From IMG/VR virus record IMGVR_UViG_3300042154_004306: a stretch of DNA of 64,000 nt; one strand, written 5' to 3'. Source of the stretch: a virus. Lineage: Duplodnaviria; Heunggongvirae; Uroviricota; Caudoviricetes. The position numbers were made by a program, and so were the translations under genes. Below the pieces are notes generated by a model. The model saw only the letters and a program-made list of their open reading frames with translations. It was not told the DNA's origin and ran no database searches. Shown one piece after another: positions 1 to 56,518 of this stretch. The number at the start of each line of letters is the position of its first letter. Position 1 is the first letter of the stretch.

Positions 1-2
1 AT

Positions 3-2297: not shown

Positions 2298-2313
2298 AAT
2301 ATAACATAAACTT

Positions 2314-12112: not shown

Positions 12113-12191
12113 TGATACCCCGATTTTCTTATTATTTATTTGACGGCTAAAACCTGAATCTGCTGCGATAAATAACAAAAAGGATTTATTA

Positions 12192-15621: not shown

Positions 15622-15676
15622 TGATGGGGTACTCAAAGTTGATAAATAACTAAAAGCCCAAACATAGTAAACCTGC

Positions 15677-18157
15677 ATGTCAGTAAAAGTAAAAATTTCA
15701 AGTATAAAATCAATCAACGGGACGAGCTTAAGCTCAGTAGTAGACCTGTCTAATCTTAATTTTAACACATTAAAGACAGCACTTGATGAATTTTTAACTT
15801 CAATAAACTACGACCAGACCACTGGCGTGACCGTTGACATTCATGGAATTACGGCGGACACGATTAAACTTAGACAGGGTTTAACCGTGTACGGCGCTCA
15901 ACAGGCCGGCGGAATTTATCCGGAAGTGATAAAGATGTATCCGACTGGAGCAGTCACTGCCAAGAACGTTGTCGTTGAGGATGTACTAGAGGGAAAAAGA
16001 TTAAGACTAAAGGTTTACGGAGTTCTACCTCCAACTGGAATTCCTGGAGAAATCGTTTACATCACATCTCAAAGCGGTAGAGTTGAAGGATTTTACGGAT
16101 ACTTAGTTTCAACCGGTTGGACTTTACTTTCAGGTGGAGGCGGTGGTGCCTGTAGAGCAGCAATCACACGATCTGCTGTTCCAAACGTTATTACTGGAGA
16201 CGGTGCTCTGGTGTCGGATGGGCTATTACCAATGCCTGCTCCATTATCGACTAGCGAATACCTACTTTTTGTGAATGGCCAACAAATAATAGTTGGAAAT
16301 GGAGATGATTCCGCTCCAGCCTACTTTAGCAAGGACAATGGAGTAACTGCTTCTAATTATGGATTAGTAGATTCAACCGACGAACTTTATTGGAATACCT
16401 CAGTTGCTGGTTATGGACTTGATTCAAATGACCTAGTGACCTTAGTATATTCATCAGCTGATCCGTATTGTGGAGCAGCTGGCATTAGCTGCTTAACTAA
16501 TATAGTGACCACCGGTAATGCGACACTGCCGTTTCCGCAACAAGGAGTAACTATCGTTTTAGATACAGCAGTTAACGCAAGCTCACCAATTACTGTGTGT
16601 CAAGTTCCAGTACCTACGGTAAATCCACCAGGCTCAAGCCTACCTGCAGGTTATTACTTAAGCAATACTTTGTTAGCCTACGATATTACAACGCCATTGG
16701 CAATTGGCGCAATAATAGGATTTACACTACCACAATCAATAAGTCTTTCCACATTCAATGCAGTTAGAATATTTCATGAGGTTGGCGGAATTTACGTTGA
16801 TGAAACTGTTTTAGTTGGACCCTATGCTCAAAACTATTCAACTAGAACGATATACGCACAAGTAACCTCATTTAGTCCTTTCTTTTTGATTCCGTTGGTG
16901 TTAACCACAACCACCTCAACCACAACGTTAACTCCGGTGTTAACCACAACCATTCCACCGACAACGACTACAACAACCTGCTCGCCAGGTTCAATCGTCG
17001 CTAATTCGATAAATTCAAATATTGTAAATTTTGTTGGAACACCAAGCGGTCCATACACGGTAATTTTCTATCCAACGGCTGGAGGAAGTTATGATCTAAC
17101 TGCCCTACACGGAGTAAACATCAGTCTATCATGGATATTCAATCGCCTTAATACTGAATATGCGAACGCTGGAATAAGTTCGGTATATGGAACCTATACA
17201 TTCACAACACTAAGTGGTTGTGAATATTCAGTTAACGTTGTAGCTGGAGCAACAACCACCACAACGACTGCGGCCGCAACGACTACTAGCACCTCTACTA
17301 CTAGCACAACGACCTCCGCTCCAACAACGACGACTACTACGGTAGCCTCCCCTACTACAACTACAACAACGGTTGCGCCAACGACGACCACAACGACTGC
17401 GGCTGCGACTACCACAACTACCACAAATTATTGTAGCCTATTTTCGATAGATATGGTTATTGCAAACTATGATCACGTAAGAGTAGGAATTTTTGGTCCT
17501 ACCGGAGTTCCTTACGAGCTGGCTGTAGATAATAACTTGGTCTTTGCTGGTTCAACTCCTGATGGTTACAATGTAACTGGAATAACTCAAAACGTTCAGT
17601 TTAAAATTGTAATAAATGGTGGAATTTGTGAATACTGTTATAATTTTGACTATGATAATCAAGTGATTACTCAAATTAACTGTGCAAGCTATGGAGTAAC
17701 AACAACTACGACAACGATCGCTCCAACCACGACTACAACAACAACTGCCGCTACAACAACGACCACGACTGCTGCGGTTACCACAAGTACTACAACGTGT
17801 ACTCCATATAATTTCACGTATTTCGCTGATTCAGGTCAAGTAACTTTCACAGTAAATACGGCTCCTATTGCTCCAAATCAAGTTAGCGTAACTACTCCTT
17901 TTGCATACACACCACCTGAGGGAAGCTATCAAATTACTGACCTTGGCTCAACTACCGAAATTGGACCAATATCAGTATCGCCACCTTATGGAACCTGGAC
18001 AATTGGTCTATTTGGCTGCAATTACTCAGTTACGGTTGCCGCACCAACAACAACGACTACAACAGCCGCTCCTACGACGACTACGACCACTGCAGCTCCT
18101 ACGACGACTACGACCACTGCAGCTCCTACGACGACTACGACCACTGCAGCTCCATAA
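15677..18157 (+). CDS. Mucin-like Thr-rich virion/fibre protein
   Basis: Globular segments separated by poly-Thr/AAP tracts; ends in APTTTTTTA repeats. ATAAATAA at 15642-15649. Confidence 0.7.
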   Translation: MSVKVKISSIKSINGTSLSSVVDLSNLNFNTLKTALDEFLTSINYDQTTGVTVDIHGITADTIKLRQGLTVYGAQQAGGIYPEVIKMYPTGAVTAKNVVVEDVLEGKRLRLKVYGVLPPTGIPGEIVYITSQSGRVEGFYGYLVSTGWTLLSGGGGGACRAAITRSAVPNVITGDGALVSDGLLPMPAPLSTSEYLLFVNGQQIIVGNGDDSAPAYFSKDNGVTASNYGLVDSTDELYWNTSVAGYGLDSNDLVTLVYSSADPYCGAAGISCLTNIVTTGNATLPFPQQGVTIVLDTAVNASSPITVCQVPVPTVNPPGSSLPAGYYLSNTLLAYDITTPLAIGAIIGFTLPQSISLSTFNAVRIFHEVGGIYVDETVLVGPYAQNYSTRTIYAQVTSFSPFFLIPLVLTTTTSTTTLTPVLTTTIPPTTTTTTCSPGSIVANSINSNIVNFVGTPSGPYTVIFYPTAGGSYDLTALHGVNISLSWIFNRLNTEYANAGISSVYGTYTFTTLSGCEYSVNVVAGATTTTTTAAATTTSTSTTSTTTSAPTTTTTTVASPTTTTTTVAPTTTTTTAAATTTTTTNYCSLFSIDMVIANYDHVRVGIFGPTGVPYELAVDNNLVFAGSTPDGYNVTGITQNVQFKIVINGGICEYCYNFDYDNQVITQINCASYGVTTTTTTIAPTTTTTTTAATTTTTTAAVTTSTTTCTPYNFTYFADSGQVTFTVNTAPIAPNQVSVTTPFAYTPPEGSYQITDLGSTTEIGPISVSPPYGTWTIGLFGCNYSVTVAAPTTTTTTAAPTTTTTTAAPTTTTTTAAPTTTTTTAAP
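18068..18148 (+). repeat. Perfect 27-nt tandem repeat x3 (gctcctacgacgactacgaccactgca; APTTTTTTA)
   Basis: Read directly; copies start at 18068, 18095 and 18122. Confidence 0.9.
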
Positions 18158-18165
18158 AAACGATT

Positions 18166-18192
18166 AAACTCCGGCATTTTTCTTAGTATAAT
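18166..18192 (+). promoter_or_regulatory. Putative AAAC-N17-TATAAT promoter (non-late class)
   Basis: Same spacing recurs at 30675-30701 (-), 30705-30731 (AATC variant), 48889-48915 and 63709-63735. Confidence 0.6.
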
Positions 18193-18197
18193 TTAGT

Positions 18198-19154
18198 ATG
18201 TTAACTAAGAAGACGATTTTCATGTCCGCTCAACCGGATCATCCGTACTTTCATTGGCAAGTTGAAGTACTAATCAATAATTTTATTAAGCTTGGAATTA
18301 ATCCAAATTGGATTGAAATTCTTTGGGCATACTCAGGCAATCCCTCATACGAGGGCCTTGCTCTTGCGACTAAATATCCAACCGTTAGATTCTTTTTCTA
18401 TGAAAAAACAGTAAAGGATAATTTCGGTTACATTCCAATTCTCAGACCTGATATTTTAGAACAACACTTTAGACGATTCCCAGAACTTCGTGGTGAAACT
18501 GTGTTCTATCATGATTCAGATATTATCTTTAGAAAACTTCCGGATTTTGATTCAATGCATAGCGACTTGTATTGGTACCTAAGTGATACGGTCTCATACA
18601 TTGGTGCTAACTACATAAAGAGCAAGTCTGAGGATCTTTTTCTAGATCTATGTAGTTTATCAAAAATTCCACCAGAGACGGTTGAGAAGAATGAGGAGGG
18701 CTCAGGTGGTGCACAGTATCTAATGAAAGGAGTTACTGCTGATTTTTGGCAAGAGGTTAAGGAAGACTCCTTATTACTATACAAATACATGTCGGATCGA
18801 GAAAATGAAGAACGTAAAACTCTATCCGCCGACGAATTAAAAACCTATAATCCAGTGCAAAAATGGTGTGCGGACATGTGGTCAGTTCTTTGGGGAGCAT
18901 GGAAGATGGGAGCTCAAACAATCGTCACTCCTGACTTGGATTTTAGCTGGGGAACTTCGTCAATCTCAGATTACGAGAGTTGTAATATTATGCACAATGC
19001 TGGAGTAACTGGCGACAGGTCCACTGAGCTATTCTATAAAGCCGACTTTAGGGATTCAAGCCCATTTGCCGCAGATCTAAGTTTTGTTAAACCTGATACT
19101 GCTTCCGCTAAATACGTTGAAGCAATTTTATATACTCAAGAAAAAAGAGGCTAG
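18198..19154 (+). CDS. GT-A glycosyltransferase resembling peptidyl-Ser/Hyp O-glycosyltransferases (SGT1/HPAT, GT96/GT95-like)
   Basis: N-terminal YFHWQ, DxD motif (HDSDIIF), WCADMW (cf. W-x-x-E-M-Y) and a late IMHNAG His motif. Confidence 0.6.
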   Translation: MLTKKTIFMSAQPDHPYFHWQVEVLINNFIKLGINPNWIEILWAYSGNPSYEGLALATKYPTVRFFFYEKTVKDNFGYIPILRPDILEQHFRRFPELRGETVFYHDSDIIFRKLPDFDSMHSDLYWYLSDTVSYIGANYIKSKSEDLFLDLCSLSKIPPETVEKNEEGSGGAQYLMKGVTADFWQEVKEDSLLLYKYMSDRENEERKTLSADELKTYNPVQKWCADMWSVLWGAWKMGAQTIVTPDLDFSWGTSSISDYESCNIMHNAGVTGDRSTELFYKADFRDSSPFAADLSFVKPDTASAKYVEAILYTQEKRG

Positions 19155-19213
19155 CTCATTTATAGGCTTAGGGTTGATAAATAACTTTAGTAGAAAAATG
19201 CAAGTCCAGTTGA

Positions 19214-21118
19214 ATGTCTCATAAAATCAAAATAAAACAAGTCGACCTCAGCGGAGTCACCCAAGATAATGCCAAGACCCGATTTTTAGTAATTGACTCC
19301 AATGGAAATCTTTCATGGAATGATTCTCCACAAACTGGTAGTTCAGGTAGCGGTGGAATATCTGGAAGTTCAGGAACCTCTGGAATAAGTGGATCGGATG
19401 GAACATCAGGCACTTCAGGTTCAAGCGGATCTTCAGGACCTTCAGGTTCTTCAGGGTCAAGTGGAGCTTCAGGAAGCTCTGGAACATCTGGAACATCAGG
19501 TTCATCTGGAACTTCAGGAACATCTGGAACATCAGGAAGCTCTGGAACAAGCGGCTCAAGTGGAACGGCTGGTTCTTCTGGAACGTCCGGCTCAGCTGGA
19601 ACGTCAGGCACGTCAGGAAGCTCTGGTTCTTCAGGCACATCAGGTGGCTCAGGATCTAGTGGATCTTCAGGAGAATCTGGATCTTCAGGAACAAGCGGAT
19701 CTTCAGGAACAAGCGGATCTTCAGGAACAAGCGGATCTTCAGGAGAATCTGGATCTTCAGGAACAAGCGGATCTTCAGGAACAAGCGGATCTTCAGGAGA
19801 ATCTGGATCTTCAGGAACAAGCGGATCATCGGGTACATCAGGATCAGCCGGTACACCCGGCACGTCAGGAAGCTCTGGAACTTCCGGTTCTGGAACTTCA
19901 GGTTCTTCTGGAACTTCCGGTTCTGGAACTTCAGGTTCTTCTGGAACTTCCGGTTCTGGAACTTCAGGTTCTTCTGGAACTTCCGGTTCTGGAACTTCAG
20001 GTTCTTCTGGAACTAGTGGAACCGGTTCAGCCGTTAATGTATACTCTCAAGGAACTTCCGCAGTATCGTCGTCCACTATACTTAACCTACAGAGCGGACT
20101 TATTGCTACCGGATCAAGCGGAACTTCTGGCCAAGCTGACATAAACGCAGTTTACAATACTCAGCTAGATTCAGCTCTAGCTATGCCTAATGCAGTTGGA
20201 GGTATTCCAGCGGCAACTACTGTTTCTGGTTTATCTGGAAAAACAATAGTCTCTCTATTTGACGATTTGTTATTTCCGACAGTTGAGCCAACTTACACGA
20301 TTCCTACGATAACATTAAGTAGTACCGTTACTGGTATTCAGGAGGTCGGCAGTACAATTAGCCCGGCTTTAACTATTTCAGGAACAAAGAATGATGCGGG
20401 TGCTTATTCTAATTTGACAATCAATCGATCGTTAAATGGTGCAACGGCTACCACATTATCAACTACTTCAAGCCCAACTAGTTCATCCGCTACGGCTATT
20501 GCAAGTCAATTTGGATACACTGATCCAAACAATCCAAACTATAGCTATTCGTTAGCATATACGGATAGCGGATTAGCTGTGCCAGCTCCATCATCCGGCA
20601 CGAGTAGCACAATCGCTTATTCTGGACTTGGGGATTATTTAATAGGCTTGGCCAAATTGACGAATAAAGGAACGACTGATCCTAGTTCATTTGCGGTTCG
20701 ATCAACGACTGCGCCACAGTCGGCTAGCACTAACTTTGCGCCGACTTCGGTAACTCTAACTGGTTACTATCCTTATTTCTACGGAAAGACTAGCACCCAG
20801 CAAACTGCTGCACAGATTCAAGCGATTATACAGTCGGGCTCAGGTTATACAGCAGTCGTTAATAATGGCGGAACCTCTCTAAGTATGGCATTTAATGCGA
20901 GTGGCGAATGGCCGTGGTTTGCAATATTTAGCGGATACTCAACAAAAGTGACTTGGAACGAAACTGCGCTAAATAATGGAAATATTGGAGGAACGACTGA
21001 CTTGTTTGCGGCTCCGACTACGTTAAGCGTTATTTCACCAAACGGATACTGGACCGTTAATTACAAAATTTACCCAGCAAATAAAGTGACTACTCTTGGA
21101 ACCGCTACGATTGCATAA
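19214..21118 (+). CDS. Gly-Ser-Ser/Gly-Thr-Ser repeat virion fibre protein with a C-terminal globular domain
   Basis: About 230 aa of SGSSGT-type repeats after a short N-terminal domain. ATAAATAA at 19177-19184. Confidence 0.75.
   Translation: MSHKIKIKQVDLSGVTQDNAKTRFLVIDSNGNLSWNDSPQTGSSGSGGISGSSGTSGISGSDGTSGTSGSSGSSGPSGSSGSSGASGSSGTSGTSGSSGTSGTSGTSGSSGTSGSSGTAGSSGTSGSAGTSGTSGSSGSSGTSGGSGSSGSSGESGSSGTSGSSGTSGSSGTSGSSGESGSSGTSGSSGTSGSSGESGSSGTSGSSGTSGSAGTPGTSGSSGTSGSGTSGSSGTSGSGTSGSSGTSGSGTSGSSGTSGSGTSGSSGTSGTGSAVNVYSQGTSAVSSSTILNLQSGLIATGSSGTSGQADINAVYNTQLDSALAMPNAVGGIPAATTVSGLSGKTIVSLFDDLLFPTVEPTYTIPTITLSSTVTGIQEVGSTISPALTISGTKNDAGAYSNLTINRSLNGATATTLSTTSSPTSSSATAIASQFGYTDPNNPNYSYSLAYTDSGLAVPAPSSGTSSTIAYSGLGDYLIGLAKLTNKGTTDPSSFAVRSTTAPQSASTNFAPTSVTLTGYYPYFYGKTSTQQTAAQIQAIIQSGSGYTAVVNNGGTSLSMAFNASGEWPWFAIFSGYSTKVTWNETALNNGNIGGTTDLFAAPTTLSVISPNGYWTVNYKIYPANKVTTLGTATIA
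19877..20008 (+). repeat. Perfect 33-nt tandem repeat x4 (GTSGSGTSGSS)
   Basis: ggaacttccggttctggaacttcaggttcttct starting at 19877, 19910, 19943 and 19976. Confidence 0.85.
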
Positions 21119-21152
21119 TAACCTAGAAAAATAAAAAGAAACAAGAAATTAA

Positions 21153-24100
21153 ATGGCAATTAATTTAAGTGATAATATACTAGCTAAGACCACCGGGCCA
21201 GCTGACGCCAAATACGGCCCATATTCTGGAGCAAATCTGGCTGCGGCTAAAACGGCCGCGACCACGTACTTATTAGCATCATACAGATACGAAGGCTTAA
21301 CTGTTGGTTTATTGGTCGCTACCGACCCAGTTGTTGAATATTGGTTTTTAGGAGGAATCACTGACGCTAACTTAGTATTAAAGCAAACAAGCGGATCCGG
21401 AGGAACTAATGGTACATCAGGATCCTCCGGAACGTCAGGTTCAAGCGGAACTGGCGGTACATCGGGAACATCAGGTACATCGGGTTCAAGTGGTTCATCA
21501 GGCACAAGTGGAAGTTCAGGTTCAAGCGGAACATCAGGTTCTTCAGGAACATCGGGCTCAAGTGGAACATCTGGATCTTCAGGAACAAGTGGATCATCAG
21601 GTACTTCAGGAGTAATTGGAATTCCAGGAAATGACGGTTCAAATTCTCTTAGGTGGTACTGGGATAACTCAACAATATTAGTACCTACTTATTTTATAAC
21701 AACTGATGGAGCTGGCTCCGTTGAAAATAATCTTAAATTTATAACTGATATTGAGTTAGATCACTACAACTCAAATTCAATAGATAGTATTAATTGGCTT
21801 TCTGAAATAAGTAGTTTAATATCCTCTGGATTAGACGTTATATTACAGATTACTGAACCAAATAATACATCAGTTTCAGGTATTTATTACATATCATCGG
21901 ATTTGAGCACTCCATCAAGTGCTAAATACGCGCTAAATATTATAGTTGCAGATGGTTCACTTACAGATCAAAAAGAATATACAATATCTTGGGTGGCTAG
22001 TTTTTCTGGATCAGCAGGAGCATCGGGAACTAGCGGTTCATCAGGATCAAGTGGTTCGTCTGGAATTTCTGGATCTAGTGGTACATCAGGATCTGCTGGT
22101 ACTTCAGGTAGTTCAGGAAGTAGTGGATCATCAGGCTCAAGCGGTTCATCAGGTTCTTCCGGAACTAGTGGATCAACCGGTTCATCTGGATCAAGTGGTA
22201 CATCTGGATCTGCTGGAACATCAGGAACTTCTGGCTCAACTGGTACGTCCGGAACTTCAGGAAGCTCAGGAACATCCGGTTCGGCAGGTAGCTCAGGTAC
22301 TTCAGGAACAACCGGCACGTCCGGTTCTTCAGGAACAAGCGGCAGCTCAGGTACTTCTGGGACAGCCGGAACATCTGGAACATCTCCTACCGGCTTAGTT
22401 GCTTCTAATTATGTGGTTAGAGGAGTTAAAGGCGGATCTACTCAAACGATTCCAAATGCTACAGATACCATAGTAACATTCGTTGATGATTTTGATCCAA
22501 ATGGATGGTTATCTTCTAATAGAATACAACCAAATATTTCAGGTTATTACATAGTCAATGCTCAAGTTTGGTGGGACCCAGGGGCTGTTACAAATAACCA
22601 AAGTAATATCCAATTTAGCAAAAATGGATCAACTCAAATAGCTATCCATCAAACACAAATTCTTACTGGCTCTGGATATGCTCAAGAGATAGATGCTATA
22701 ATTTTCTTTAATGGAACTACTGACTATGTAGAAGTAACAGCATTCACCGGTAATCCAACATCTCAAGTAATAAATTCAGCTAATGGTGGAACATACATAG
22801 AGGCTTCTTTAATAGTAGGTGGTGGTACTAGCGGTTCTTCAGGAACAAGCGGAACTTCAGGTAGTTCTGGTTCATCTGGCACGAGTGGGTCTGCTGGAAC
22901 TTCAGGTAGCTCAGGAACGAGCGGATCTTCAGGAACATCAGGAATAAATGGATCTTCTGGAACATCAGGAATAAATGGATCTTCTGGCACAAGCGGATCT
23001 GATGGATCTTCAGGAACATCAGGAACGAGCGGATCTTCTGGAACATCAGGAATAAACGGATCTTCAGGAACATCAGGAATAAATGGATCTTCTGGCACAA
23101 GCGGATCTGATGGATCTTCAGGAACATCAGGAACGAGCGGATCTTCTGGAACATCAGGAATAAACGGATCTTCAGGAACATCAGGAATAAACGGATCTTC
23201 TGGAACATCAGGAATAAATGGATCTTCTGGCACATCAGGAGTTAACGGTTCTTCTGGAACTTCGGGATCATCGTGTTTAACTTATTTCGTATTAAATACT
23301 TCAATTAGCTCGTTTGAAACGTATTCTTATATAGATTGTGAATTTAATAGCCAGGGACCTATAGTACTACCTCCTGCTGGTAGTGCAACGTTCTGTGCAT
23401 TGGGAGATTCTGTGACAGGAGGACCTAATATAGACATCGCGTTACTTGGAATTTGTAGTGGCTCTAGCGGTTCATCAGGAACCTCAGGTTCTTCAGGAAC
23501 AAGTGGATCTAGTGGATCTTCAGGAACATCTGGTAGCACAGGATCAAGTGGATCTTCAGGAAGCTCTGGTAGCTCAGGTACATCAGGTTCATCTGGAACA
23601 TCAGGGAGCTCAGGTACATCAGGTTCATCTGGAACATCAGGTAGCTCAGGTACATCAGGTTCATCTGGAACATCAGGTAGCTCAGGTACATCAGGTTCAT
23701 CAGGAACATCAGGTAGCACAGGATCTAGCGGATCTTCAGGAAGCTCGGGATCCTCTGGAACATCAGGTTCATCAGGAACATCAGGTAGCACAGGATCTAG
23801 TGGATCTTCAGGAAGTTCTGGTAGCTCAGGCACATCCGGATCTTCTGGAAGTTCAGGAACATCTGGCTCAAGCGGTTCATCAGGCACTTCAGGATCAAGC
23901 GGTAGCTCAGGATCTGCTGGATCTTCTGGTACATCAGGTACATCGGGTACATCAGGATCATCAGGAACTTCCGGCGCAAACGGGATTTCTTCCGGACAAA
24001 TTTATTATTTTAATGAATCAGTTTCAAGCGGAATTGGTACATATAAAGAATTATCAGCTAATCCAACCGGTGCAGCTGAACAATCTATTCTTAAAACAAC

Positions 24101-27100
24101 AACAGGTAGTACACCAGTCCTAGTACAGCAATTTATAACGCCACAATTAGGATTTTCTGTAATACCGGGTGGAACACAAAGATTCCATTTACATTTTAAA
24201 AAGAATAATACAAATGATAATACTGATACATTTGTTACAATCGAATTAGCTAATTCTAGTGGTACTGGATACGGGACAATTATATCAACAAACCAAGCAG
24301 CAATTGGATTTGTATCGCCGACAATTCCAGTAGAAGTTACAACTGATTTAACTTTACCTACAACTACAATTAACTCAACCGATCGAATGATCGTTAAGAT
24401 ATACGTAGTAGATCAAGGAACTAGCACCCGAGATGTTACCTGGTATACTGAAGGATCTACTAATTATTCGTTTGTGATAACCTCGGTTGGAGCTCAAAGC
24501 GGTACATCAGGTACATCAGGTTCTTCAGGAACATCAGGCTCAAGTGGAACTAGTGGTTCATCAGGTACCTCAGGTTCTTCAGGTTCTAGTGGAAGTTCAG
24601 GTTCATCTGGTTCATCAGGTACTTCGGGGTCAAGTGGTACTTCAGGTACTGACGGCTCAAGTGGTACAAGCGGTACTGATGGAAGTAGCGGAACTTCAGG
24701 AACATCAGGTTCAAGCGGAACAGATGGTTCGTCAGGAACTTCAGGCAGTAGTGGAACTTCAGGTTCAAGTGGTTCTTCGGGTACATCAGGTACAAATGGT
24801 ACAAGTGGTTCATCGGGAACAAATGGTAGTTCAGGTACTTCCGGAACTTCAGGTAGCTCAGGCACATCCGGATCTTCTGGAAGTTCAGGAACATCAGGTT
24901 CAAGTGGTTCATCAGGAACTAGCGGTTCTTCAGGTTCAAGCGGAACTAGCGGTAGCTCAGGTTCTTCAGGAAGTAATGGAACTTCAGGGTCTTCCGGTTC
25001 ATCAGGAACTAGCGGTACGGATGGTAGTTCAGGGACTAGTGGTAGTTCAGGGACTAGTGGTATTAATGGTTCGTCAGGAACTTCAGGAACTAATGGAACA
25101 TCAGGTTCAAGTGGAAGTTCAGGTTCTTCTGGTACATCAGGTAGTTCGGGTTCAAGTGGATCTTCAGGATCTTCTGGGTCTGCTGGTACATCCGGTAGTT
25201 CTGGAACAAGTGGTTCTTCAGGTACATCAGGTTCAAGTGGAAGTTCAGGTACATCAGGATCTGCTGGAACAAGCGGTTCATCAGGATCAAGTGGTTCTAG
25301 TGGTTCATCTGGTACTAGCGGAAGCTCAGGAACATCAGGATCAAGTGGTACTTCAGGATCTTCTGGCTCAAGTGGAACATCCGGTACATCGGGATCAAGT
25401 GGTTCTAGTGGTACATCGGGATCAAGTGGTTCTAGTGGTACATCGGGAACATCAGGATCTTCTGGATCTTCAGGAACTAGTGGATCATCAGGATCAGCAG
25501 GTTCATCTGGATCCTCAGGAACTTCAGGTTCAAGCGGAACTAGCGGAGATTCCTGCATCAGTTACACTATAACCAATACCGGATCAATATTTGGAAATAT
25601 TGATCCCCCTATTAGTGTAGATTATACTGACTGTTCGTATAATCAAGGTACCTCAATAACGTTAAATCCTGGTGAATCTGCAACGGTTTGTGCAATAGGT
25701 GGTTCAATCGGTGTATCAGGCAGTACTAATTACTCGATTATTAATAATGGCTTATGTCACGGTTCTTCTGGAAGTAGCGGTACTTCAGGGTCAAGCGGAA
25801 CATCAGGTTCATCAGGAAGTTCAGGAACATCTGGCTCAAGCGGAACTAGCGGAAGCTCAGGTTCAAGCGGAACATCAGGGTCTAGTGGAACAAGTGGTAG
25901 TAGTGGTACGTCAGGAACATCAGGTTCAAGCGGTACTTCCGGAACATCAGGTACTTCCGGAACTTCAGGTAGCTCAGGCACATCCGGATCTTCTGGAAGT
26001 TCAGGAACATCTGGCTCAAGCGGTACATCAGGCACATCAGGTAGCTCAGGATCTGCTGGATCTTCTGGTACATCAGGTAGTTCAGGTTCAAGTGGAACAA
26101 GCGGAAGTTCTGGCTCTTCAGGAACTAGTGGTTCTAGTGGAAGTTCAGGTTCTAGTGGAACAAGTGGTTCATCAGGTACGGATGGTAGTTCAGGTACAAG
26201 TGGAACTAATGGTAGTTCAGGTACAAGTGGTACTGATGGTTCTTCAGGAACTTCGGGGTCAAGTGGAACTTCAGGTACGGACGGAAGTTCAGGTACTAGT
26301 GGTAGTTCAGGTTCATCAGGGTCTTCCGGTTCATCAGGATCATCCGGAACATCAGGATCTGCTGGAACAAGTGGTTCATCCGGATCGAGTGGATCTTCAG
26401 GATCTGCTGGTACTTCAGGTAGTTCAGGAAGTAGTGGATCATCAGGCTCTTCTGGAACAAGTGGTTCATCTGGATCTGCTGGAACAAGCGGTAGTTCAGG
26501 ATCAAGTGGATCATCAGGATCTGCTGGTACATCCGGTTCAAGTGGCTCATCCGGCTCTGCTGGAACAAGTGGTTCATCCGGCTCTTCGGGTAGTAGTGGC
26601 TCTGCTGGTACTTCTGGATCATCAGGATCTGCTGGTACTTCGGGTAGTTCAGGTTCATCAGGAACTAGTGGTACATCTGGTAGTTCAGGCTCTGCTGGTA
26701 CATCAGGATCAAGTGGTAGCTCAGGTTCAGCTGGTACATCTGGTACAAGTGGATCAAGCGGTACTTCAGGTTCATCAGGAACTAGCGGCTCAAGTGGAAC
26801 TAGCGGTTCATCTGGCTCAAGTGGAACTAGCGGTTCATCAGGAACATCTGGTTCAAGCGGTACTTCGGGTTCTAACGGTTCGTCAGGAACAAGCGGATCT
26901 TCAGGAACTTCTGGTTCTTCTGGCTCAAGTGGTTCTTCTGGAACATCAGGCTCTAGTGGTTCTTCTGGAACATCGGGTAGCTCAGGCACTTCAGGTTCTT
27001 CAGGCACTTCAGGCTCAAGTGGTTCAAATGGAACTTCAGGCTCAAGTGGTTCAAGCGGTACATCAGGTTCTTCTGGTAGCTCAGGAACTTCAGGTTCAAG

Positions 27101-30011: not shown

Positions 30012-30064
30012 GGAAGAACTGGTCTAGCCGAATTACTCTTTGCAATTTAACGATTTGCTGATTT

Positions 30065-30655
30065 TTACCGAAACGGTGATCCTCCAACCCAAAGTACTAG
30101 GCTTCTTCGAATTCCGCGAGTCACTGGCGTAACTCGGTGTAGCATGTAACTTGGAAAAATTAGAACCGCTCCATGAGTGTTAGGCAGTCTTTCAGGATTC
30201 ATGCCCCTAAGTATCTCAAAGTCTCCACCGTCATATTCGCTAGGATCGCTTAACTGTACTGATATGCTTACTTTTCTGTGAGATGCTGTGCCTGGACCAA
30301 GGTCAACATGATAGCCGTAGTGGCCACCACCTTCATGATACTCGGTGTACTGTATGCTTTCTGGACTTGAAATTAGGTCAAAATTCCATAAATTTGAATT
30401 AGCCGTCCTTGCGAAATCTAGCATTTTACTGTAGAGCCAATGAGCCTCCGGCTTTGAATTATCAATCCATTTAATGCGGCTCTTTCTAATCTCGGCGGTT
30501 GGAGAGTCTGTTCCAAATGTGACAGCCTCTTCGTATTTGAACTCGGTTGCAAGTTCATGAGCTCGATTAATTTCATCAATTGAAAAACCTCTTTCAAACC
30601 AATACCAGTTTAATAGGTCAATCTCTTTTTGGGGAAATACTAGTTTCCAGGTCAT
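30065..30655 (-). CDS. 2OG-Fe(II) dioxygenase (prolyl-4-hydroxylase/PKHD-type)
   Basis: HVD...H facial triad (HYGYHVD; MLHRVTPV), YDGGDF and R-x-S-L-V-x-W. Confidence 0.85.
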   Translation of the reverse strand: MTWKLVFPQKEIDLLNWYWFERGFSIDEINRAHELATEFKYEEAVTFGTDSPTAEIRKSRIKWIDNSKPEAHWLYSKMLDFARTANSNLWNFDLISSPESIQYTEYHEGGGHYGYHVDLGPGTASHRKVSISVQLSDPSEYDGGDFEILRGMNPERLPNTHGAVLIFPSYMLHRVTPVTRGIRRSLVLWVGGSPFR

Positions 30656-30674
30656 TACCGTTGTATTTTTAGTT

Positions 30675-30731
30675 TTTATACTTACAAAAATTAGGTAGTT
30701 TACTAATCCAATTTAAAAAATCGAGTATAAA
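30675..30731. promoter_or_regulatory. Back-to-back divergent promoters: AAAC-N17-TATAAA (-) and AATC-N17-TATAAA (+)
   Basis: Minus-strand element 30675-30701 faces the oxygenase; plus-strand element 30705-30731 faces the glycosyltransferase operon. Confidence 0.55.
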
Positions 30732-30753
30732 ATAAAAACGCACAACTCAAGTA

Positions 30754-33558
30754 ATGTCATTAATAAAAGCGCACACTTCGATAATTGGAGATACTGGCTA
30801 TAACTGCCATTCACGAAATTTCTTCAAAGCTTTAAATAAACACATCCCAGTCCAGGTTAGAAATTGGACGGTCGGTGAATCTTGGAAAGGATACCAAACC
30901 GATAGCCCACATGACGGTGAGTACTATATGGATGATGAACTGCGAACAATGCTCGATTCACAAAGCCTAATAGAGCCTAGTGGCCAATCCAAGGGCTATC
31001 CTCTCTATCGGAACTACCGGCAAGAGACTTCCGGTCAACCGGTTAACATCATTCTAAATGATAATCGACATGAGTACTTTTTTCAAAATTATTCAGGCCC
31101 AAAGATTGCATATAACGTTTGGGAAACAACTCAGCAGCCTAAAGAATTTTTTGAGAGATTAAAGACGATGGATCAGGTTTGGGTTCCAAGTAAATGGCAA
31201 CGAGATTGCACAGTTGAGCAGGGAATTCCGGCCGCTCTGGTCAAAATCGTGCCAGAGGGAGTTGATGCTTCCATGTTTTTTCCAAGAACTAGAGAAGTGA
31301 TTGACCCAAGCGGTCGAACCTTTAAATTCGTATTGATAGGCCGTTGGGAATATCGTAAAGCGACTAGAGAGATCATTCAAGCATTCACTCAAACCTTTAG
31401 CGAAGACGAACCAGTAGAATTAATTATCAATGTGGATAACGGATTCGCAACAGACGGCCTATCCTCAACTGAGGAACGCCTTGAAAAATTCGGCATCAAG
31501 CATGCAGGCATCAAAGTGATTCATCACATAACCAAACAGGAATACGTCGACCTACTTAATTCAGCTGACGTGTTTGTGTCTTGTGCCAGAAGCGAAGGTT
31601 GGAACCTACCTCTAATTGAGGCAATGGCCAGCGGAGTTCCATCGATATACAGTAATTGGGGAGCTCAATTGGAGTTTGCAGAAGGCAAGGGAATCCCAGT
31701 CAAAATAGTTGGAGAAGTTCCAGCAGCGGCACAGAATGAAGAATCTTGGGATTCAAGCTCTCCTGGTAATTTTGCAGAGCCGGACTTTGCGGATTTACGC
31801 CTAAAACTTAGAGACTCCTATGAAAATTTCACAGCACATAAGGCAAAAGCTCTACTAGACTCCGATGAAATTCGTAGAGTTTTTAGCTGGGAAAATGCTG
31901 CAATAATCGCATTAGATCACATTAGAGAGGTGCTAGCCTCCAGTACAATTGAATACTCATCTGACTTTGCATGGGTGACCTGTGGGAACGAGAAGTACAT
32001 GCCGTTAATTCAGAAGTTAGCTACTTCGCTAGACCTATTTTCCAAGCGAAAATTAATCGTATATGGAATAGATTGTGAAGTCCCCAATATGGGACCAAAC
32101 GTAATCGGTCGAACCTTGTCAATTCAATATCACTCAGAACATGATAAGTGGTACTGGAAGCAATCTGCATGCCTTGAATCACTAAACGAAGAATTTGAGA
32201 ATTTTATTTGGGTCGACGGCGATATTGTTGCGAATTACACGATCGATAATATTGCCGAGTACTTTAATTTAGTTGATAATTATCCAGTACCAGACGTCCA
32301 CATACAAGAAGATTTCGTGGGTTGGCATACAAAACCGGACGGAACTCTAGGTGAGCAATTATTCAATCAAAATATTTGCGAAAAAGAGAAAATTCCTAGA
32401 CTTGCAACAAAGTCTCACATTTGCCTCTACCTCTATAATAAGAAGTGTGATTGGTGGTTTGCTGAGATTTTAGAAACCTATAAGAACACAAAACCTGAAG
32501 AGTATGGCTTCTACTTCCAATGGAATGATGAGGGTATTGATAACTACTTACGCTGCAAGTATAACTTTCAAAAATTTCTACCAATCTCTAACTTCGATGT
32601 TTCTGAATGGGATGGAGAGATTCAAGGATCTAATGGCAAAGCAATGGAACATTTCCTGTCTTTTTGGAGAGAAAACGGGCCAAAGAACTTCGGTAAAATA
32701 TACGGATGGCAAAGAATTCCAGCAGATAAATCAAAAATTCTCTATTTTCATGGAAACAAAAATCTAGACTTTGCACAAACCATGATAGACTATGTCAAAT
32801 TCCAAAGAGACGGCTCATTTTTTGACTCGGAATACTTTTTTGTTGCTGACAATCAAATAAAGAATTTGGGAGAGATTCGTAATGCTCACGGATCAACCAT
32901 GGATATTGCCCATCAATACGGCTGGGATTATGCAATCTATCATGAAATTTATAATTTAGGAGATTATGAACATCCTAGAGAGTCTGCTGAAAAATTAGTT
33001 AAGGTGAGACCTGGAGATGTAGTGGTCGATCTTGGAGGAAATATCGGAATATTTACCAGATACGCGTATCACATGGGAGCAAGTAAGATCATTACCTTTG
33101 AACCGGACCGTAGATACTTTAAGATACTAAAACAAAATGCCCCAGCCAATACAATTCTGTTTAATGCAGCAATCGGCAATGAGGTTGGCAAATTAAGATT
33201 AACTGAAAGCACTCATTTGGGAGGATCTAACCTATGGCATCATGCCGATCCGACTACGACACAATACGATGTTAATACCTACACCCTAAATTACCTACTA
33301 GATAACGGATTGATTGATAAAATCGATTTCTTAAAGGTTGATATTGAGGGCTCTGAGATTATTGCATTGGATGGAATAAGCGATGCTCATCTTTCGAATA
33401 TCAGAAATATCGCAGTTGAGTATCATCATGAACACCTAAAATTCGATGATGAACTTAGAAACAATTTCATTACTCGATTGAATCGACTTGGTTTTAATTC
33501 ATACATGCTAATGTGCGGCTATGATAATGCACTACAATTAATTTACTTCTGGAAATAA
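30754..33558 (+). CDS. Trifunctional protein: GT4 glycosyltransferase + GT-A glycosyltransferase + FkbM-type methyltransferase
   Basis: EGWNLPLIEAMASG (GT4 E-x7-E); WVDGD and YFHG (GT-A); VVVDLGGNIG and FLKVDIEGSE (FkbM). Confidence 0.85.
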   Translation: MSLIKAHTSIIGDTGYNCHSRNFFKALNKHIPVQVRNWTVGESWKGYQTDSPHDGEYYMDDELRTMLDSQSLIEPSGQSKGYPLYRNYRQETSGQPVNIILNDNRHEYFFQNYSGPKIAYNVWETTQQPKEFFERLKTMDQVWVPSKWQRDCTVEQGIPAALVKIVPEGVDASMFFPRTREVIDPSGRTFKFVLIGRWEYRKATREIIQAFTQTFSEDEPVELIINVDNGFATDGLSSTEERLEKFGIKHAGIKVIHHITKQEYVDLLNSADVFVSCARSEGWNLPLIEAMASGVPSIYSNWGAQLEFAEGKGIPVKIVGEVPAAAQNEESWDSSSPGNFAEPDFADLRLKLRDSYENFTAHKAKALLDSDEIRRVFSWENAAIIALDHIREVLASSTIEYSSDFAWVTCGNEKYMPLIQKLATSLDLFSKRKLIVYGIDCEVPNMGPNVIGRTLSIQYHSEHDKWYWKQSACLESLNEEFENFIWVDGDIVANYTIDNIAEYFNLVDNYPVPDVHIQEDFVGWHTKPDGTLGEQLFNQNICEKEKIPRLATKSHICLYLYNKKCDWWFAEILETYKNTKPEEYGFYFQWNDEGIDNYLRCKYNFQKFLPISNFDVSEWDGEIQGSNGKAMEHFLSFWRENGPKNFGKIYGWQRIPADKSKILYFHGNKNLDFAQTMIDYVKFQRDGSFFDSEYFFVADNQIKNLGEIRNAHGSTMDIAHQYGWDYAIYHEIYNLGDYEHPRESAEKLVKVRPGDVVVDLGGNIGIFTRYAYHMGASKIITFEPDRRYFKILKQNAPANTILFNAAIGNEVGKLRLTESTHLGGSNLWHHADPTTTQYDVNTYTLNYLLDNGLIDKIDFLKVDIEGSEIIALDGISDAHLSNIRNIAVEYHHEHLKFDDELRNNFITRLNRLGFNSYMLMCGYDNALQLIYFWK

Positions 33559-33569
33559 ACCCATTTAAA

Positions 33570-34238
33570 ATGAGATCATTAGATAAAATAGCAAAAGCAA
33601 AGGGCACAGATAAATCTTCAGAGCTTCATAACTACTGTGAAAAGTACGAAAAATATTTGCCATTCAATAGATTAGAACCTATTACTCTATTGGAAATTGG
33701 AGTGCTTAACGCAGAATCTCTTGCGACTTGGAGAGAATACTATCCCAATGCAACAATCATCGGCATTGATATTAATCCGGATTGCAAGCAGTATGAAGAT
33801 CAACCGAATAATGTATTCGTTGAAATAGGTTCACAGTATGATGAGGCTTTCCTAAAGTCAATAGTTGATAAATGGGGACCTTTTGATATTGTACTAGATG
33901 ACGGTTCTCACATGAATCACCATGTAATCTTTTCATTTGAACAGCTATTTAGTTCAATCAAACCTTCTGGAGTATACGTTGTCGAGGATGCATGCACTTC
34001 ATATTGGCCAGACTACGGAGGCGGCACTAAAAAACCTGGCACAATGATAGAATACTTCAAAGACCGAGTAGATGAAGTTAATTTCGGCGGAGAATGGCAA
34101 GAGTCCATCACACACAGTCACGCACGTCGTGAAGACTTGTTAATTGAACAATTCAAACGAAAGGGCTATAATTTCATAGGAACTCAAGTCGAGTCCTTAA
34201 ATTTCCTAAACAGCATAATCATAATAACAAAAAGATAA
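33570..34238 (+). CDS. Class I SAM-dependent O-methyltransferase (MycE/TylE sugar-O-methyltransferase-like)
   Basis: TDKS..HNY, LLEIGV, FDIVLDDGSH and GVYVVED motifs. Confidence 0.8.
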   Translation: MRSLDKIAKAKGTDKSSELHNYCEKYEKYLPFNRLEPITLLEIGVLNAESLATWREYYPNATIIGIDINPDCKQYEDQPNNVFVEIGSQYDEAFLKSIVDKWGPFDIVLDDGSHMNHHVIFSFEQLFSSIKPSGVYVVEDACTSYWPDYGGGTKKPGTMIEYFKDRVDEVNFGGEWQESITHSHARREDLLIEQFKRKGYNFIGTQVESLNFLNSIIIITKR

Positions 34239-34246
34239 CAATTATA

Positions 34247-37024
34247 ATGGCACACAAAGAACAGCAGGACTTTTGTAAAAAAATGAAAGCTAATTTTCCA
34301 AAATACTTTCAAAATAAAAAAGTATTAGATATTGGCTCCCTAGACGTTAATGGCAATAATCGATTCTTATTCGATGATTGCAACTATATTGGCCTTGACG
34401 TCGGAGATGGTAAAAACGTTGATGTAGTTTTTCCAGGCCATAAGTACGATGCTCCAGACGAGCAATTTGATGTAATTATCTCAACTGAAGTATTTGAACA
34501 TGATATGTATTATGAATCAACCATTCAAAATATTATCAGAATGCTAAAACCTGGAGGAATGTTTATTTTTACATGTGCTTCAGGTCAACGCCCTGAGCAT
34601 GGAACACTTCGCCGTGGAGAGCATGACGCTCCATTATTAATTCAGCAATCTCCAGAATGGGCAAATTACTATAAAAATTTAGAGAAGGAAGACTTTTTAG
34701 CAATTAATGAGTTTAAGAATGCATTCCCTGATGGAATATTCGAAGTAGGTTCACATGGCATGTATAACCACGAATGGGATGATCAGCTAATGCACAATAT
34801 TCATTCTGACATTTATTTCTTTGGAGTTAAAGGCGGCATTGCAAACGACCTTAAATTTTCACCAGACCACAGGCCGTCTCAAACTCAACCTGGAGAATAT
34901 TCAGACGATATTTTTGTTGTTGACACCTGGCCCAACACTCCAGAAAAGGAGGCTGATCTTATTGAGTGCATTAGGAAACTTAGAGAATTTAGCGGCATTC
35001 CGATCTTGTTAGTGTCTCACTATGCAATAAAACCTGAAATTCAAAAATTAGTAGATTACTATATTTTCGACAAAGATAATCCTCTTTTGCTAAACAAAGA
35101 TTTTGATTCAGTTAGCTCTTTTGCTAGCGGTAGATGGACTGCTACTAATGAATACCGAGTGGATAACTACATGGCCTACCATCATGATTATGCTATTTGG
35201 CAATCAATGACTCATGCCTTTAATTTTTGTAAGTATTTAGGTAAAAAGATGATACACTTTATGGAATACGATTGTCTGCTTGACACATTTCAGTATCGCC
35301 AAACCTTTTTAGAACAGGCTCGCAATCATGACGCCGTGATCTATGAATATCGTAAAGGTTCTGCAGCAGATCAACACCTATCTGCGTACATGGCAACCTA
35401 CATATTTTCAATAAAAACTGATATTGCCGTTGAGATGATGAAGCAGGTAAATTCAATTCAAGAATACTATTCGAATCGACCTGAAAGTTGGCAGCTTGAA
35501 AGACTTTTCTTAAGGTGCTTAACTGAACAAACTTCCAACATTCTAGTAAGTAAATACATTGCAAACTCAAACGAATTAAATACTCAAGCAGTTTGGAATA
35601 GAGATGGAATTCTCAGAAATGATGCAAAATTCCAGGTTTATCCATGTGCTGATGTAAATGGCAACTTTTACGTTCATCTTATTTCAGGATTTCACGAAGC
35701 GTCAGCTGATTCGGATTATCTACTTGAAATCAAATACGCAGGTCTCACTAAATTCGTAACTCTAACCATAGGTCAAATGACTCTAATTCACTTGGGAAAA
35801 TACAGTAAAGGTCAGACGATTAAAGTAAATTATTTAGGAGTTGAGGCATTCTCTGAATTTTTACAAGACGAGCTAGCCGAGTTCTTAAAAATGAATATTG
35901 TAACTTTGCCAAATGGTGCAGAACCTACGGTTGAAGTTTTTTATAATTTCGTGGACGGTGCATACGTTGAGATAAAATCAGATTCACCAAGTCCTTATAA
36001 AGTGTCATTTATCGATGATGATTCTGGTGTTACCCATTTTTCGACAACCCTTACTTCCGGTCATTGGGCTAAAACCGGGATCCAGTACTTCAAGAATTGG
36101 AGAATCGAGATTACGGACTCATTTAATAAGGTAATCGAGTCCGCTAAATATGACGCTGCCGGCCAACGAGTTTACATCGCCCTTGAGTCAAAAGCGCTAG
36201 GTGATACTTTTGCATGGCTGCCGTATGTTGAGGAGTTTAGAAAAAAGCATGATTGCGCAGTAATCTGCTCAACATTTCATAATCAATTATTTAAAGCGAC
36301 TTATCCAAATATCGGGTTCATTGAGCCAGGTAGTCCAATCGGTGGCGTGTACGCGCTTTACAGATTGGGTTGGTTTAACCATGGAGACCGCTTCGATGCG
36401 GACCGAAATCCTAGAGATTTTAAATTAGGTCCTTTGCAACGAACTGCTTCTGATATATTAGGTTTAGAGTATCGAGAGGTTAGACCGGTAATTTACCGCC
36501 CTGCTCGAAAATTGACAAAGAAGGTAGGCCTTGGAATTCACAGCACAGCTCAAGCAAAATATTGGAATAACTCAACTGGCTGGCAAGAGGTTACTGATTG
36601 GCTAATCGAAAATGGATATGAGCCCGTAATCTTGTCTAGGGAAGAAGACGGCTACATGGGAAATCCAAATCCAGTTGGAGCTGTTCAGCTTGTGCCAGGC
36701 CCGTTAAAGAGCGTCATTCACGAACTCTCTGAGTGTCAAGCATTCATAGGTATCAGTAGTGGATTGACCTGGTTAGCATGGGCTACCGATACGCCAACTG
36801 TTCAAATTTCCGGATTCACGGAACCTTTCAATGAGCCTAATGAGGGTATTATTAAGATATCTGCCCCAGCTGGCGCATGCTCAGGTTGTGCTAATCGATC
36901 AAAATTTGATCCAGGAGATTGGAACTGGTGCCCGGACCAAAAGGGCACGGACCGCCAATTTGAGTGCTCAAAATTAATCAGTGCAGACCGGGTAATCGCT
37001 AAACTAAGGGAGATTCTCGTATAG
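34247..37024 (+). CDS. Methyltransferase + unknown middle domain + Aah/TibC-like protein O-glycosyltransferase
   Basis: N-terminal VLDIGSLDVNG methyltransferase. C-terminal YNFVDGAYVEI...YFKNWRIEI barrel, ALGDTFAWLPYVEEFRKKHDC, FIGISSGLTWLAWA and CSGC...WCP...RQFEC four-Cys motif. Confidence 0.8.
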   Translation: MAHKEQQDFCKKMKANFPKYFQNKKVLDIGSLDVNGNNRFLFDDCNYIGLDVGDGKNVDVVFPGHKYDAPDEQFDVIISTEVFEHDMYYESTIQNIIRMLKPGGMFIFTCASGQRPEHGTLRRGEHDAPLLIQQSPEWANYYKNLEKEDFLAINEFKNAFPDGIFEVGSHGMYNHEWDDQLMHNIHSDIYFFGVKGGIANDLKFSPDHRPSQTQPGEYSDDIFVVDTWPNTPEKEADLIECIRKLREFSGIPILLVSHYAIKPEIQKLVDYYIFDKDNPLLLNKDFDSVSSFASGRWTATNEYRVDNYMAYHHDYAIWQSMTHAFNFCKYLGKKMIHFMEYDCLLDTFQYRQTFLEQARNHDAVIYEYRKGSAADQHLSAYMATYIFSIKTDIAVEMMKQVNSIQEYYSNRPESWQLERLFLRCLTEQTSNILVSKYIANSNELNTQAVWNRDGILRNDAKFQVYPCADVNGNFYVHLISGFHEASADSDYLLEIKYAGLTKFVTLTIGQMTLIHLGKYSKGQTIKVNYLGVEAFSEFLQDELAEFLKMNIVTLPNGAEPTVEVFYNFVDGAYVEIKSDSPSPYKVSFIDDDSGVTHFSTTLTSGHWAKTGIQYFKNWRIEITDSFNKVIESAKYDAAGQRVYIALESKALGDTFAWLPYVEEFRKKHDCAVICSTFHNQLFKATYPNIGFIEPGSPIGGVYALYRLGWFNHGDRFDADRNPRDFKLGPLQRTASDILGLEYREVRPVIYRPARKLTKKVGLGIHSTAQAKYWNNSTGWQEVTDWLIENGYEPVILSREEDGYMGNPNPVGAVQLVPGPLKSVIHELSECQAFIGISSGLTWLAWATDTPTVQISGFTEPFNEPNEGIIKISAPAGACSGCANRSKFDPGDWNWCPDQKGTDRQFECSKLISADRVIAKLREILV

Positions 37025-37034
37025 ATAATTCTAT

Positions 37035-39481: not shown

Positions 39482-39501
39482 ATTATACTACATTATTTAT
39501 A
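39482..39501 (-). promoter_or_regulatory. Tandem promoter elements for the tmRNA (TATAAATA and TAGTATAAT)
   Basis: Minus strand reads TATAAATAatgTAGTATAATaaccttatatGGGG. Confidence 0.6.
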
Positions 39502-56484: not shown

Positions 56485-56518
56485 TCTTTAGTATAATATT
56501 CTCTAAAGATAATGTAAA

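Follow-up and report, generated by a model that had tools for sequence, protein, structure and literature searches.

Predicted O-glycosylation of poly-threonine and collagen-like fibres in a large T4-like phage

To our knowledge, the only demonstrations so far of glycosylated virions or fibres come from mycobacterial phages and giant viruses, and thus, among phages, from mycobacteriophages only. Glycosylation of the mycobacteriophage virion weakens the neutralising antibody response to the particles. A glycosylated collagen-like fibre is known from the Bacillus exosporium, where BclA carries Gly-x-Thr repeats with O-linked, methylated sugars and has a C1q-like C-terminal domain. Virion glycosylation has been described in mycobacteriophages Che8, Corndog and Myrna and in cluster O, the last with an O-methyltransferase gene and three glycosyltransferase genes whose products modify both the capsid and the tail tube (PMC11600133 for both points and PMC12582341 for the first, citing Freeman et al. 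2023). The fibrils of Mimivirus and the Megavirinae are glycosylated as well (PMC9614988, PMC10117803). Here we describe a gene cluster at positions 15677-37024 of a 64,000-nucleotide stretch from a virus of the Caudoviricetes (IMG/VR record IMGVR_UViG_3300042154_004306; hereafter the window), in which genes for poly-threonine and collagen-like proteins lie among genes for glycosyltransferases and methyltransferases.

The cluster consists of eight tightly packed genes on the plus strand and one gene on the minus strand, with three fibre-type proteins (P0001, P0003 and P0004) interleaved with five enzyme genes (P0002, P0005, P0006, P0007 and P0008). The three hydroxyl-rich ORFs and the enzyme genes that an original prediction, made from this sequence, had placed here were all found in position. 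We think it probable, at about 0.65, that the phage O-glycosylates its own fibres with two priming enzymes, each specific for one kind of sequence tag, and that the glycans are then extended and methylated. Enzymes of each type keep to their own kind of repeat across many phages, and these viruses therefore probably coat their fibres with sugar.

The described systems resemble this cluster in part. In the mycobacteriophages, phage-encoded glycosyltransferases and an O-methyltransferase lie by structural genes and virion proteins are modified; here, too, glycosyltransferase and methyltransferase genes lie by structural genes, together with Ser/Thr-rich segments in the putative virion proteins. 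The mycobacteriophage targets, however, are capsid and tail-tube proteins of phages with Actinobacteria as hosts, and their glycans have been demonstrated, whereas the proposed targets here are collagen-like and poly-Thr fibres of a T4-like phage. Our candidate priming enzymes are one of the TibC type and one from an unannotated GT-A family. The likeness to the Megavirinae lies in a virus-encoded machinery that decorates a fibre layer of the particle independently of host secretory glycosylation, but those are eukaryotic giant viruses with other enzymes and with sugar-nucleotide synthesis of their own, for which we found no genes in this cluster. BclA is collagen-like and O-glycosylated at hydroxy-amino-acid positions, methylated sugars included, as we propose here; it differs in being bacterial, in having Thr rather than Ser as acceptor, in its transferases and in its C1q-like head, a counterpart of which was not detected in P0003 or P0004.

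The original prediction knew of no characterised case of this combination. With mycobacteriophage glycosylation (PMC11600133) and giant-virus glycosylation (PMC9614988) on record, the combination is less unprecedented than that. A full-text search of the literature returned no relevant paper on TibC-type enzymes with collagen-like phage fibres, on poly-Thr phage glycosylation or on the phage Mel-JY01 discussed below, and the TibC/serine-collagen pairing, as well as the presence of both halves in one cluster, appears to be new.

Two candidate priming enzymes and their putative acceptors

The first pair opens the cluster. P0001 (15677..18157, plus strand) is an 826-aa modular poly-Thr protein, proposed as the acceptor of P0002 from its translation, Ser/Thr run count and synteny. 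It contains 16 runs of at least six Ser/Thr residues, mostly (A/P)T6, and is laid out as an N-terminal part of ~400 aa, for which solved relatives were not detectable, three Cys-bracketed modules of ~90 aa parted by Thr runs, and an (AAPT6)x4 C-terminal end. P0002 (18198..19154, plus strand), a 318-aa GT-A glycosyltransferase and the proposed poly-Thr O-glycosyltransferase, belongs to the unannotated phage family phrog_4417 (4.5e-63). Its AlphaFold model (pLDDT 92) has the Rossmann-like GT-A fold, and the DxD motif of such enzymes is present as D106-x-D108, invariant among 20 aligned homologues. Foldseek found at least 251 matches at E <=1e-3; all 50 of those listed were GT-A enzymes, the nearest solved structures being WbbM, the GT24 domain of UGGT and GT8 enzymes (E down to 6e-7). 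By sequence, P0002 matched nothing significant in the PDB (best E 0.26), gave chance-level rows only against Pfam at E <=10 and had no match in NCBIfam; it has relatives in at least 3852 clusters, and among the 120 listed none carried a name or a Pfam family.

The original prediction had assigned P0002 to GT95/96, GT95 being the plant and algal hydroxyproline O-arabinosyltransferases (HPAT). At sequence level this assignment did not hold, as neither P0002 nor its homologues (20 aligned members) matched the Pfam HPAT family PF23452 at E <=10. The two do share a GT-A-type architecture, with the P0002 model superposing on the predicted models of a Chlorophyta HPAT cluster at a TM of 0.74 over 285 residues, and both may act on low-complexity, hydroxyl-rich segments, which for P0002 is our proposal. 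They differ in that P0002 and 19 homologues lack the PF23452 match, in that the tags would be poly-Thr rather than Hyp, and in that the best solved matches are WbbM, GT24 and GT8. Among clusters of predicted structures, P0002 comes nearest (TM 0.94) to a family of 581-aa Bacteroidota proteins, many of which have a Glyco_transf_7C domain, and these models hint at fused bacterial relatives of P0002 and at a Bacteroidota host range.

The second pair joins two collagen-like proteins to one domain of a large enzyme. P0003 (19214..21118, plus strand; Pfam Collagen, 8.8e-23) is a 634-aa collagen-like fibre protein with Gly-(S/T)-S triplets at about residues 40-290, followed by a 345-aa C-terminal domain. 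It matches PHROG tail-fibre families through its repeats, and its C-terminal domain shares 64% identity with the corresponding domain of a collagen ORF in the distant phage G008, where the collagen cluster ends at a T4 neck-protein gene. P0004 (21153..30011, plus strand), proposed from its translation and triplet composition as the main acceptor of the TibC-like domain, has ~2109 of its 2952 residues in a Gly-X-Y register broken up by seven non-repeat segments; Ser or Thr occupies X in 94% of the triplets and Ser occupies Y in 88%, with <1% Pro. Because of this register, the GSS/GTS repeats that the original prediction had noted are collagen-type triplets, making up a proline-free 'serine collagen'. 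Both proteins thus have the long Gly-X-Y register of a collagen, in P0003 by its Pfam match, and lack the usual Pro/Hyp-rich X and Y positions, Pro accounting for <1% of X/Y in P0004 and 0-4% in relatives. With the textbook collagen rise of ~0.29 nm per residue, a continuous triple helix of the register length of P0004 would measure ~600 nm. Long alternative-frame ORFs inside the P0004 gene are by-products of the repeat. Solved relatives of the C-terminal domains of P0003 and P0004 were not detectable. The same phage encodes another type of collagen in a 925-aa protein at 8547-11324, where a short Pro-containing stretch, GATGPTGLTGPIGPAGPIGPIGPIGETG, follows a 35-residue N-terminus.

The enzyme of this second pair, P0007 (34247..37024, plus strand), combines a methyltransferase, a GT-A-like and an Aah/TibC-family domain. 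Residues 557-917 match the TibC structure 4rap_A (E 5e-51), and residues 561-923 pass the curated NCBIfam equivalog TIGR04414 (259 bits, cut-off 200); the same domain matches heptosyltransferases of lipopolysaccharide (LPS) only weakly (29 bits, cut-off 185). D653 aligns with the catalytic Asp of the LGD motif in 4rap, the position that differs between 4rap (LGD) and 4rb4 (LGA), and C878, C881, C895 and C907 align with the four-Cys finger of TibC (CxxC ... WCP ... FEC); the Asp and the Cys residues are invariant in 33 phage representatives. Judged by this model and these residues, P0007 557-923 is a true Aah/TibC-family (BAHT) domain, as had been predicted. It is related to the known BAHTs (4rap, 4rb4, TIGR04414) over their full length and, on the phage side by prediction, would share with them the character of a cytoplasmic, Ser-directed protein glycosyltransferase acting on long repeats. 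It differs from them in being fused to a methyltransferase and a GT-A-like domain.

Enzyme type and repeat type pair across phage lineages

We collected 80 viral contigs with TibC-like genes and 62 with P0002-like genes and, after dereplication at 90% identity, scored the ORFs around these genes, counting a poly-Ser/Thr run wherever at least 10 of 12 residues were Ser or Thr. For the P0002 family, the ORF directly upstream had such a run in 23 of 32 lineages and reached 9/12 in 5 more, against a background of 20 of 310 other ORFs (6%) in the same loci. The poly-Ser/Thr ORFs upstream were 200 to 1800 aa long, and most had no similarity to the N-terminus of P0001. The pairing was seen again in Chryseobacterium phage MA9V-3, and also in the Firmicutes siphophages VPE25, phiCTP1 and PLE3, in which the P0002 homologue belongs to the head/tail module and poly-Thr terminates the capsid, decoration and tail-tube proteins.

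Of 32 lineages with TibC-like genes, 23 had a collagen-like ORF no more than 10 kb away, and 10 had one directly adjacent. In all 23, this was a Gly-(S/T)-Ser collagen with Ser as the commonest Y residue (48-99%) and almost no Pro; one of the 23 loci also had a second, Pro-rich collagen. TibC lineages without a nearby collagen had giant ones of the same type elsewhere in the genome, up to 4772 aa in length. Among whole records, collagen-like ORFs were present in 7 of 8 that were TibC-positive, and those whose composition was read (all but that of G001) were Gly-x-Ser, while 0 of 6 records without a TibC-like gene had a Gly-x-Ser collagen. G005, which is complete (434 kb) and TibC-negative, has Gly-x-Thr collagens instead. 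TibC loci were essentially free of poly-Thr ORFs, and distant P0002 loci were free of collagen ORFs. These data show a double dissociation of enzyme type and repeat type, and the synteny across phages bears out the idea of two unrelated priming transferases, each paired with its own hydroxyl-rich repeat.

The enzymes that accompany the collagens vary. In G006 (locus L152), a 344-kb relative, a 2049-aa Gly-Thr-Ser collagen is directly followed, at 6157-7876, by genes for a sulfotransferase, an adenylylsulfate (APS) kinase and a small nucleotidyltransferase, and then by a GT9 gene and a GT4-TibC-FkbM fusion; the sulfotransferase and APS kinase suggest sulfated rather than methylated decoration in that lineage. 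G008 has three collagens, then LamG, GT4, TibC and the T4 neck protein. In Mel-JY01, GT4 and TibC-like domains are fused in one 1226-aa protein beside a Gly-Thr-Ser collagen frame. A constant fibre type surrounded by shuffled decorating enzymes is what we would expect of a glycan-decoration system under diversifying selection.

The Mel-JY01 record (L001, PP395634.1) carries minus-strand annotations of Pro/Val/Glu-rich 'hypothetical proteins' at 1-651 and 739-2298. On the plus strand, 2-3049 is an open frame of 1016 aa that includes 486 residues of Gly-Thr/Ser-Ser triplets and continues into the gene annotated at 2519-3052. Directly downstream of this frame come a Ser-rich 'structural protein' and the GT4...TibC fusion. 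The ORFs annotated on the minus strand probably just mirror a collagen-like gene that is truncated where the record begins.

Proposed elongation and methylation, and competing explanations

P0005 (30754..33558, plus strand) was read through Pfam and NCBIfam as a GT4 domain, a DxD domain and an FkbM methyltransferase. Its N-terminus (~100-390) matches Glycos_transf_1 (1.2e-11, 44.8 bits, cut-off 26.4), and its C-terminus (756-914) matches Methyltransf_21 (7.4e-15, 55.9 bits, cut-off 22.7) and NCBIfam fkbM_fam (1.5e-25, 90.4 bits, cut-off 37.7). The middle domain (401-735) has an invariant DxD (D88-x-D90 in the alignment); it had no Pfam match and chance-level rows only in a PDB profile search, and its relatives in the large database carry no Pfam family on that domain, which leaves a language-model score of 0.88 to GT8/PF03407 as the single lead. 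In the model of P0007, residues 201-549 (pLDDT 81) form a nucleotide-diphospho-sugar-transferase fold followed by a beta-sandwich. The fold scores Z 13-15 to GT-A enzymes and to sugar nucleotidyltransferases alike, and the domain may therefore be either. Profile-profile comparison of both middle domains with the P0002 family found nothing. Of the four or more glycosyltransferase domains originally proposed, three are firm (the GT4 of P0005, the TibC-like domain of P0007 and the GT-A enzyme P0002), the fourth is the ambiguous fold in P0007, and the P0005 middle domain is a possible fifth.

All three predicted methyltransferase domains were recovered: the FkbM domain of P0005; P0006 (33570..34238, plus strand), a 222-aa S-adenosylmethionine-dependent methyltransferase (phrog_21658, 9.7e-30; Methyltransf_24 at 1.7e-3, under its cut-off) that is syntenic in relatives; and residues 1-170 of P0007, a class I methyltransferase (Methyltransf_23/11).

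A 2OG-Fe(II) oxygenase is also present as predicted. P0008 (30065..30655, minus strand; PF13640, 3.8e-13) is generic and P4H-like, its NCBIfam matches lying under their cut-offs. Full-length syntenic copies were found, among the loci compared, only in the close relatives L005/L006 and L021-L029, with weak partial matches in L064 and L074. We considered P0008 as a collagen prolyl or lysyl hydroxylase and rejected this role as unsupported, because Pro and Lys are almost absent from the collagens and the cluster does not retain the gene consistently. It might possibly hydroxylate the Ala-Pro/Pro-Pro residues that precede the Thr runs of P0001, and we regard any role in the system, and with it membership of that system, as doubtful.

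We propose that, late in infection, two independent pairs of tag and enzyme act in the cytoplasm on the phage's own fibre proteins. P0002 would prime P0001 by placing the first sugar on threonines of its poly-Thr linkers and tail, as enzymes of its family may do in other phages, where capsid, decoration and tail-tube proteins carry poly-Thr tags. The TibC-like domain of P0007 would glycosylate the Y-position serines of the Gly-(S/T)-Ser chains of P0003 and P0004. The GT4 domain, with one or two additional GT-A-like domains, would extend these glycans, whose sugars would be capped through methylation by the three methyltransferase domains, of which two are fused to transferases. The modified fibres would then be mounted near the neck or baseplate; the genomic context suggests that P0001, P0003 and P0004 are virion parts. 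We infer the repeats to be acceptors, and infer likewise the identity of the sugars, their O-methylation and their place on the virion surface. There a glycocalyx may form, whose likely role would be shielding or adhesion. We consider the pairing of P0002 with poly-Thr quite probable and that of the TibC-like domain with serine collagen more probable than not; for methylation acting on the sugars, we put the chances at even.

Several points weigh against this explanation. Glycosylation, here and in the relatives, is predicted from sequence and models. Synteny can reflect shared late expression, not an enzyme-substrate relation, and the counts are not independent because the lineages compared are related. 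Two P0002 lineages, L114/L142 and L115/L117, are without a poly-Ser/Thr ORF in the 10 kb around the gene; G004, a complete phage, carries two TibC-like genes but lacks a strong collagen; and the control provided by a complete phage with collagens and no TibC-like gene is a single one, G005. Known BAHTs act on beta-helical autotransporter repeats of 19 residues, not on collagen triplets such as those associated with the phage enzymes, and no autotransporter domain was found among the cluster proteins scanned. Known BAHTs also use ADP-heptose (ADP-L-glycero-beta-D-manno-heptose), and G014, the closest complete relative, differs from BAHT systems in lacking heptose-pathway genes, as it encodes no GmhA-like (SIS_2) or cytidylyltransferase-like (CTP_transf_like) protein. 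The donor would thus come from the host or be a different sugar; G004 and G006 do have a GmhA-like gene. Finally, the substrate of the methyltransferases could be protein, or something quite different.

Among the other explanations, the one that survives best is that the enzymes remodel a host surface polysaccharide (LPS, O-antigen or capsule), for instance to block superinfection, and that the repeat proteins are unmodified fibres. This is how glycosyltransferase/O-methyltransferase clusters of jumbo cyanophages have been read (PMC7824862), and GT4, GT9-fold, GT8-like and FkbM enzymes are typical of polysaccharide pathways. The TibC-like domain, however, passes a protein-specific equivalog and reaches only 29 bits against the cut-off of 185 for LPS heptosyltransferases. 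In addition, we found no gene in the cluster for a flippase, a polymerase, an initiating transferase or sugar-nucleotide synthesis, the genes sit within the tail/neck module, and polysaccharide remodelling would leave unexplained why each enzyme is paired with one repeat type across lineages. We therefore consider it unlikely.

Alternatively, the enzymes may glycosylate proteins other than the neighbouring fibres, either virion proteins such as capsid and sheath or host proteins, with adjacency reflecting a shared late operon. Such a relation is suggested by the Firmicutes phages, where the P0002-family enzyme would serve tags on several virion proteins, some of them kilobases away, by G004 with its TibC-like genes and no collagen, and by the several lineages in which over 10 kb separate the collagen genes from the TibC-like gene. 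Against this, the only poly-Thr and Gly-x-Ser sequences found within the window are in the adjacent genes of the cluster, and direct adjacency is strongly enriched, so that we hold other targets to be quite unlikely.

It is improbable, in our judgement, that the Ser/Thr repeats are plain flexible linkers and the collagens unglycosylated, their co-occurrence with the enzymes being synteny inherited within one large phage group. Many of the loci compared do come from related jumbo phages, and collagen-like genes are common in these genomes anyway. Yet poly-Thr is paired with the GT-A enzyme in unrelated Firmicutes siphophages and a Bacteroidota phage, on different carrier proteins, the type of collagen goes with whether a TibC-like gene is present, and domain fusions and gene orders vary among lineages. 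Modification of phage DNA by base glycosylation or methylation is highly improbable: phages do glycosylate DNA (bioRxiv 10.1101/2023.12.21.572611), and a separate cassette of the window (56519-58778) could do so, but the cluster enzymes are of BAHT, GT4 and GT8/24-like types in a tail module, and Pfam and NCBIfam scans found no hydroxymethylase or DNA-binding domain in them.

Should the pairings seen here be real, many jumbo phages of natural waters, and many phages of Firmicutes and Bacteroidota, would have sugar-coated virions, and the coating would be written by simple tags, poly-Thr and Gly-x-Ser, that could be transplanted to engineer phage surfaces. Aah/TibC biology, so far that of a handful of E. 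coli adhesins, would come to include hundreds of phage lineages. It might also be explained why giant collagen-like fibres have almost no proline, because glycans may stabilise them instead. We tentatively suggest, with somewhat less than even confidence, that phages widely use two orthogonal, genetically encoded 'glyco-tags', poly-Thr read by the unannotated GT-A family, which has thousands of members and is related in fold to plant HPAT, and proline-free Gly-x-Ser collagen read by Aah/TibC-type enzymes, that giant phage fibres are the main natural niche of the BAHTs, which are known only from a few autotransporter adhesins, and that sugar-coated virions with variable methyl or sulfate caps are common among environmental large phages. 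Cultured carriers exist (Mel-JY01, MA9V-3, VPE25 and PLE3), which makes the question directly testable.

Genomic setting and promoter-like boxes

The window belongs to a large T4-like phage and encodes a gp6-like baseplate wedge, a gp15-like sheath stabiliser, TerL, PhoH and a sigma factor. Its TerL is nearest to those of metagenomic huge phages, Sphingomonas phage PAU and Lak phages, and, among complete relatives, contigs of 270 kb that bear terminal repeats come closest. A nucleotide search of isolated phages with 30060-38000 gave a single weak match, to Mel-JY01 (68% over 6% of the query), and there is thus no close cultured relative. No transmembrane segments were found in the cluster proteins examined.

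Directly 3' of P0007 lies P0009 (37035..37649, plus strand), a conserved 204-aa protein with a weak likeness to tail-tube proteins (phrog_45, 7.9e-6); it is 81-96% identical among relatives and there always lies directly 3' of the TibC-like gene or enzyme block. It is followed by the T4 gp15-like tail sheath stabiliser (37646..38386, minus strand; PF16724, 2.5e-7), a homing-endonuclease-like gene (38391-39044, minus strand; phrog_314, 1e-34) and the gp6-like baseplate wedge gene (39567-41261). Because the gp15-like gene adjoins it, we place the cluster in the tail/neck module. On the other side, just 5' of the poly-Thr gene, a 450-aa gene at 14269-15621 encodes an Amidoligase_2 domain (6e-5) and, after it, repeats rich in Cys; its product could be another protein-modifying enzyme. 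The separate cassette at 56519-58778 stands apart from the fibre cluster and may serve DNA modification or repair; it encodes an FkbM methyltransferase (5e-11) and a glycosylase-like HhH-GPD protein (1.2e-5), together with an unassigned ORF of 355 aa.

A promoter-like box, GATAAATAAC, occurs in four exact copies in the window, at 12167, 15641, 19176 and 39536, all on the plus strand and each 25-31 nt 5' of a start codon. The genes that follow are one at 12192, P0001 (box at 15641..15650, 27 nt 5' of the start codon), P0003 (box at 19176..19185, 29 nt 5') and the baseplate wedge gene, with which P0001 and P0003 thus have the box in common; this is context for our reading of them. Copies with one mismatch precede genes at 50180, 54656 and 61225. 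The T4 late promoter is TATAAATA, which GATAAATAAC resembles; GATAAATAAC is therefore a candidate late promoter, and late, structural expression would fit. A different box, TAGTATAAT, lies at 18184-18192 (plus strand) just 5' of P0002, at 56489-56497 (plus strand) 5' of the FkbM cassette that begins at 56519, and at 39490 (minus strand). Since it precedes P0002, that gene may use a promoter class unlike that of the surrounding fibre genes.

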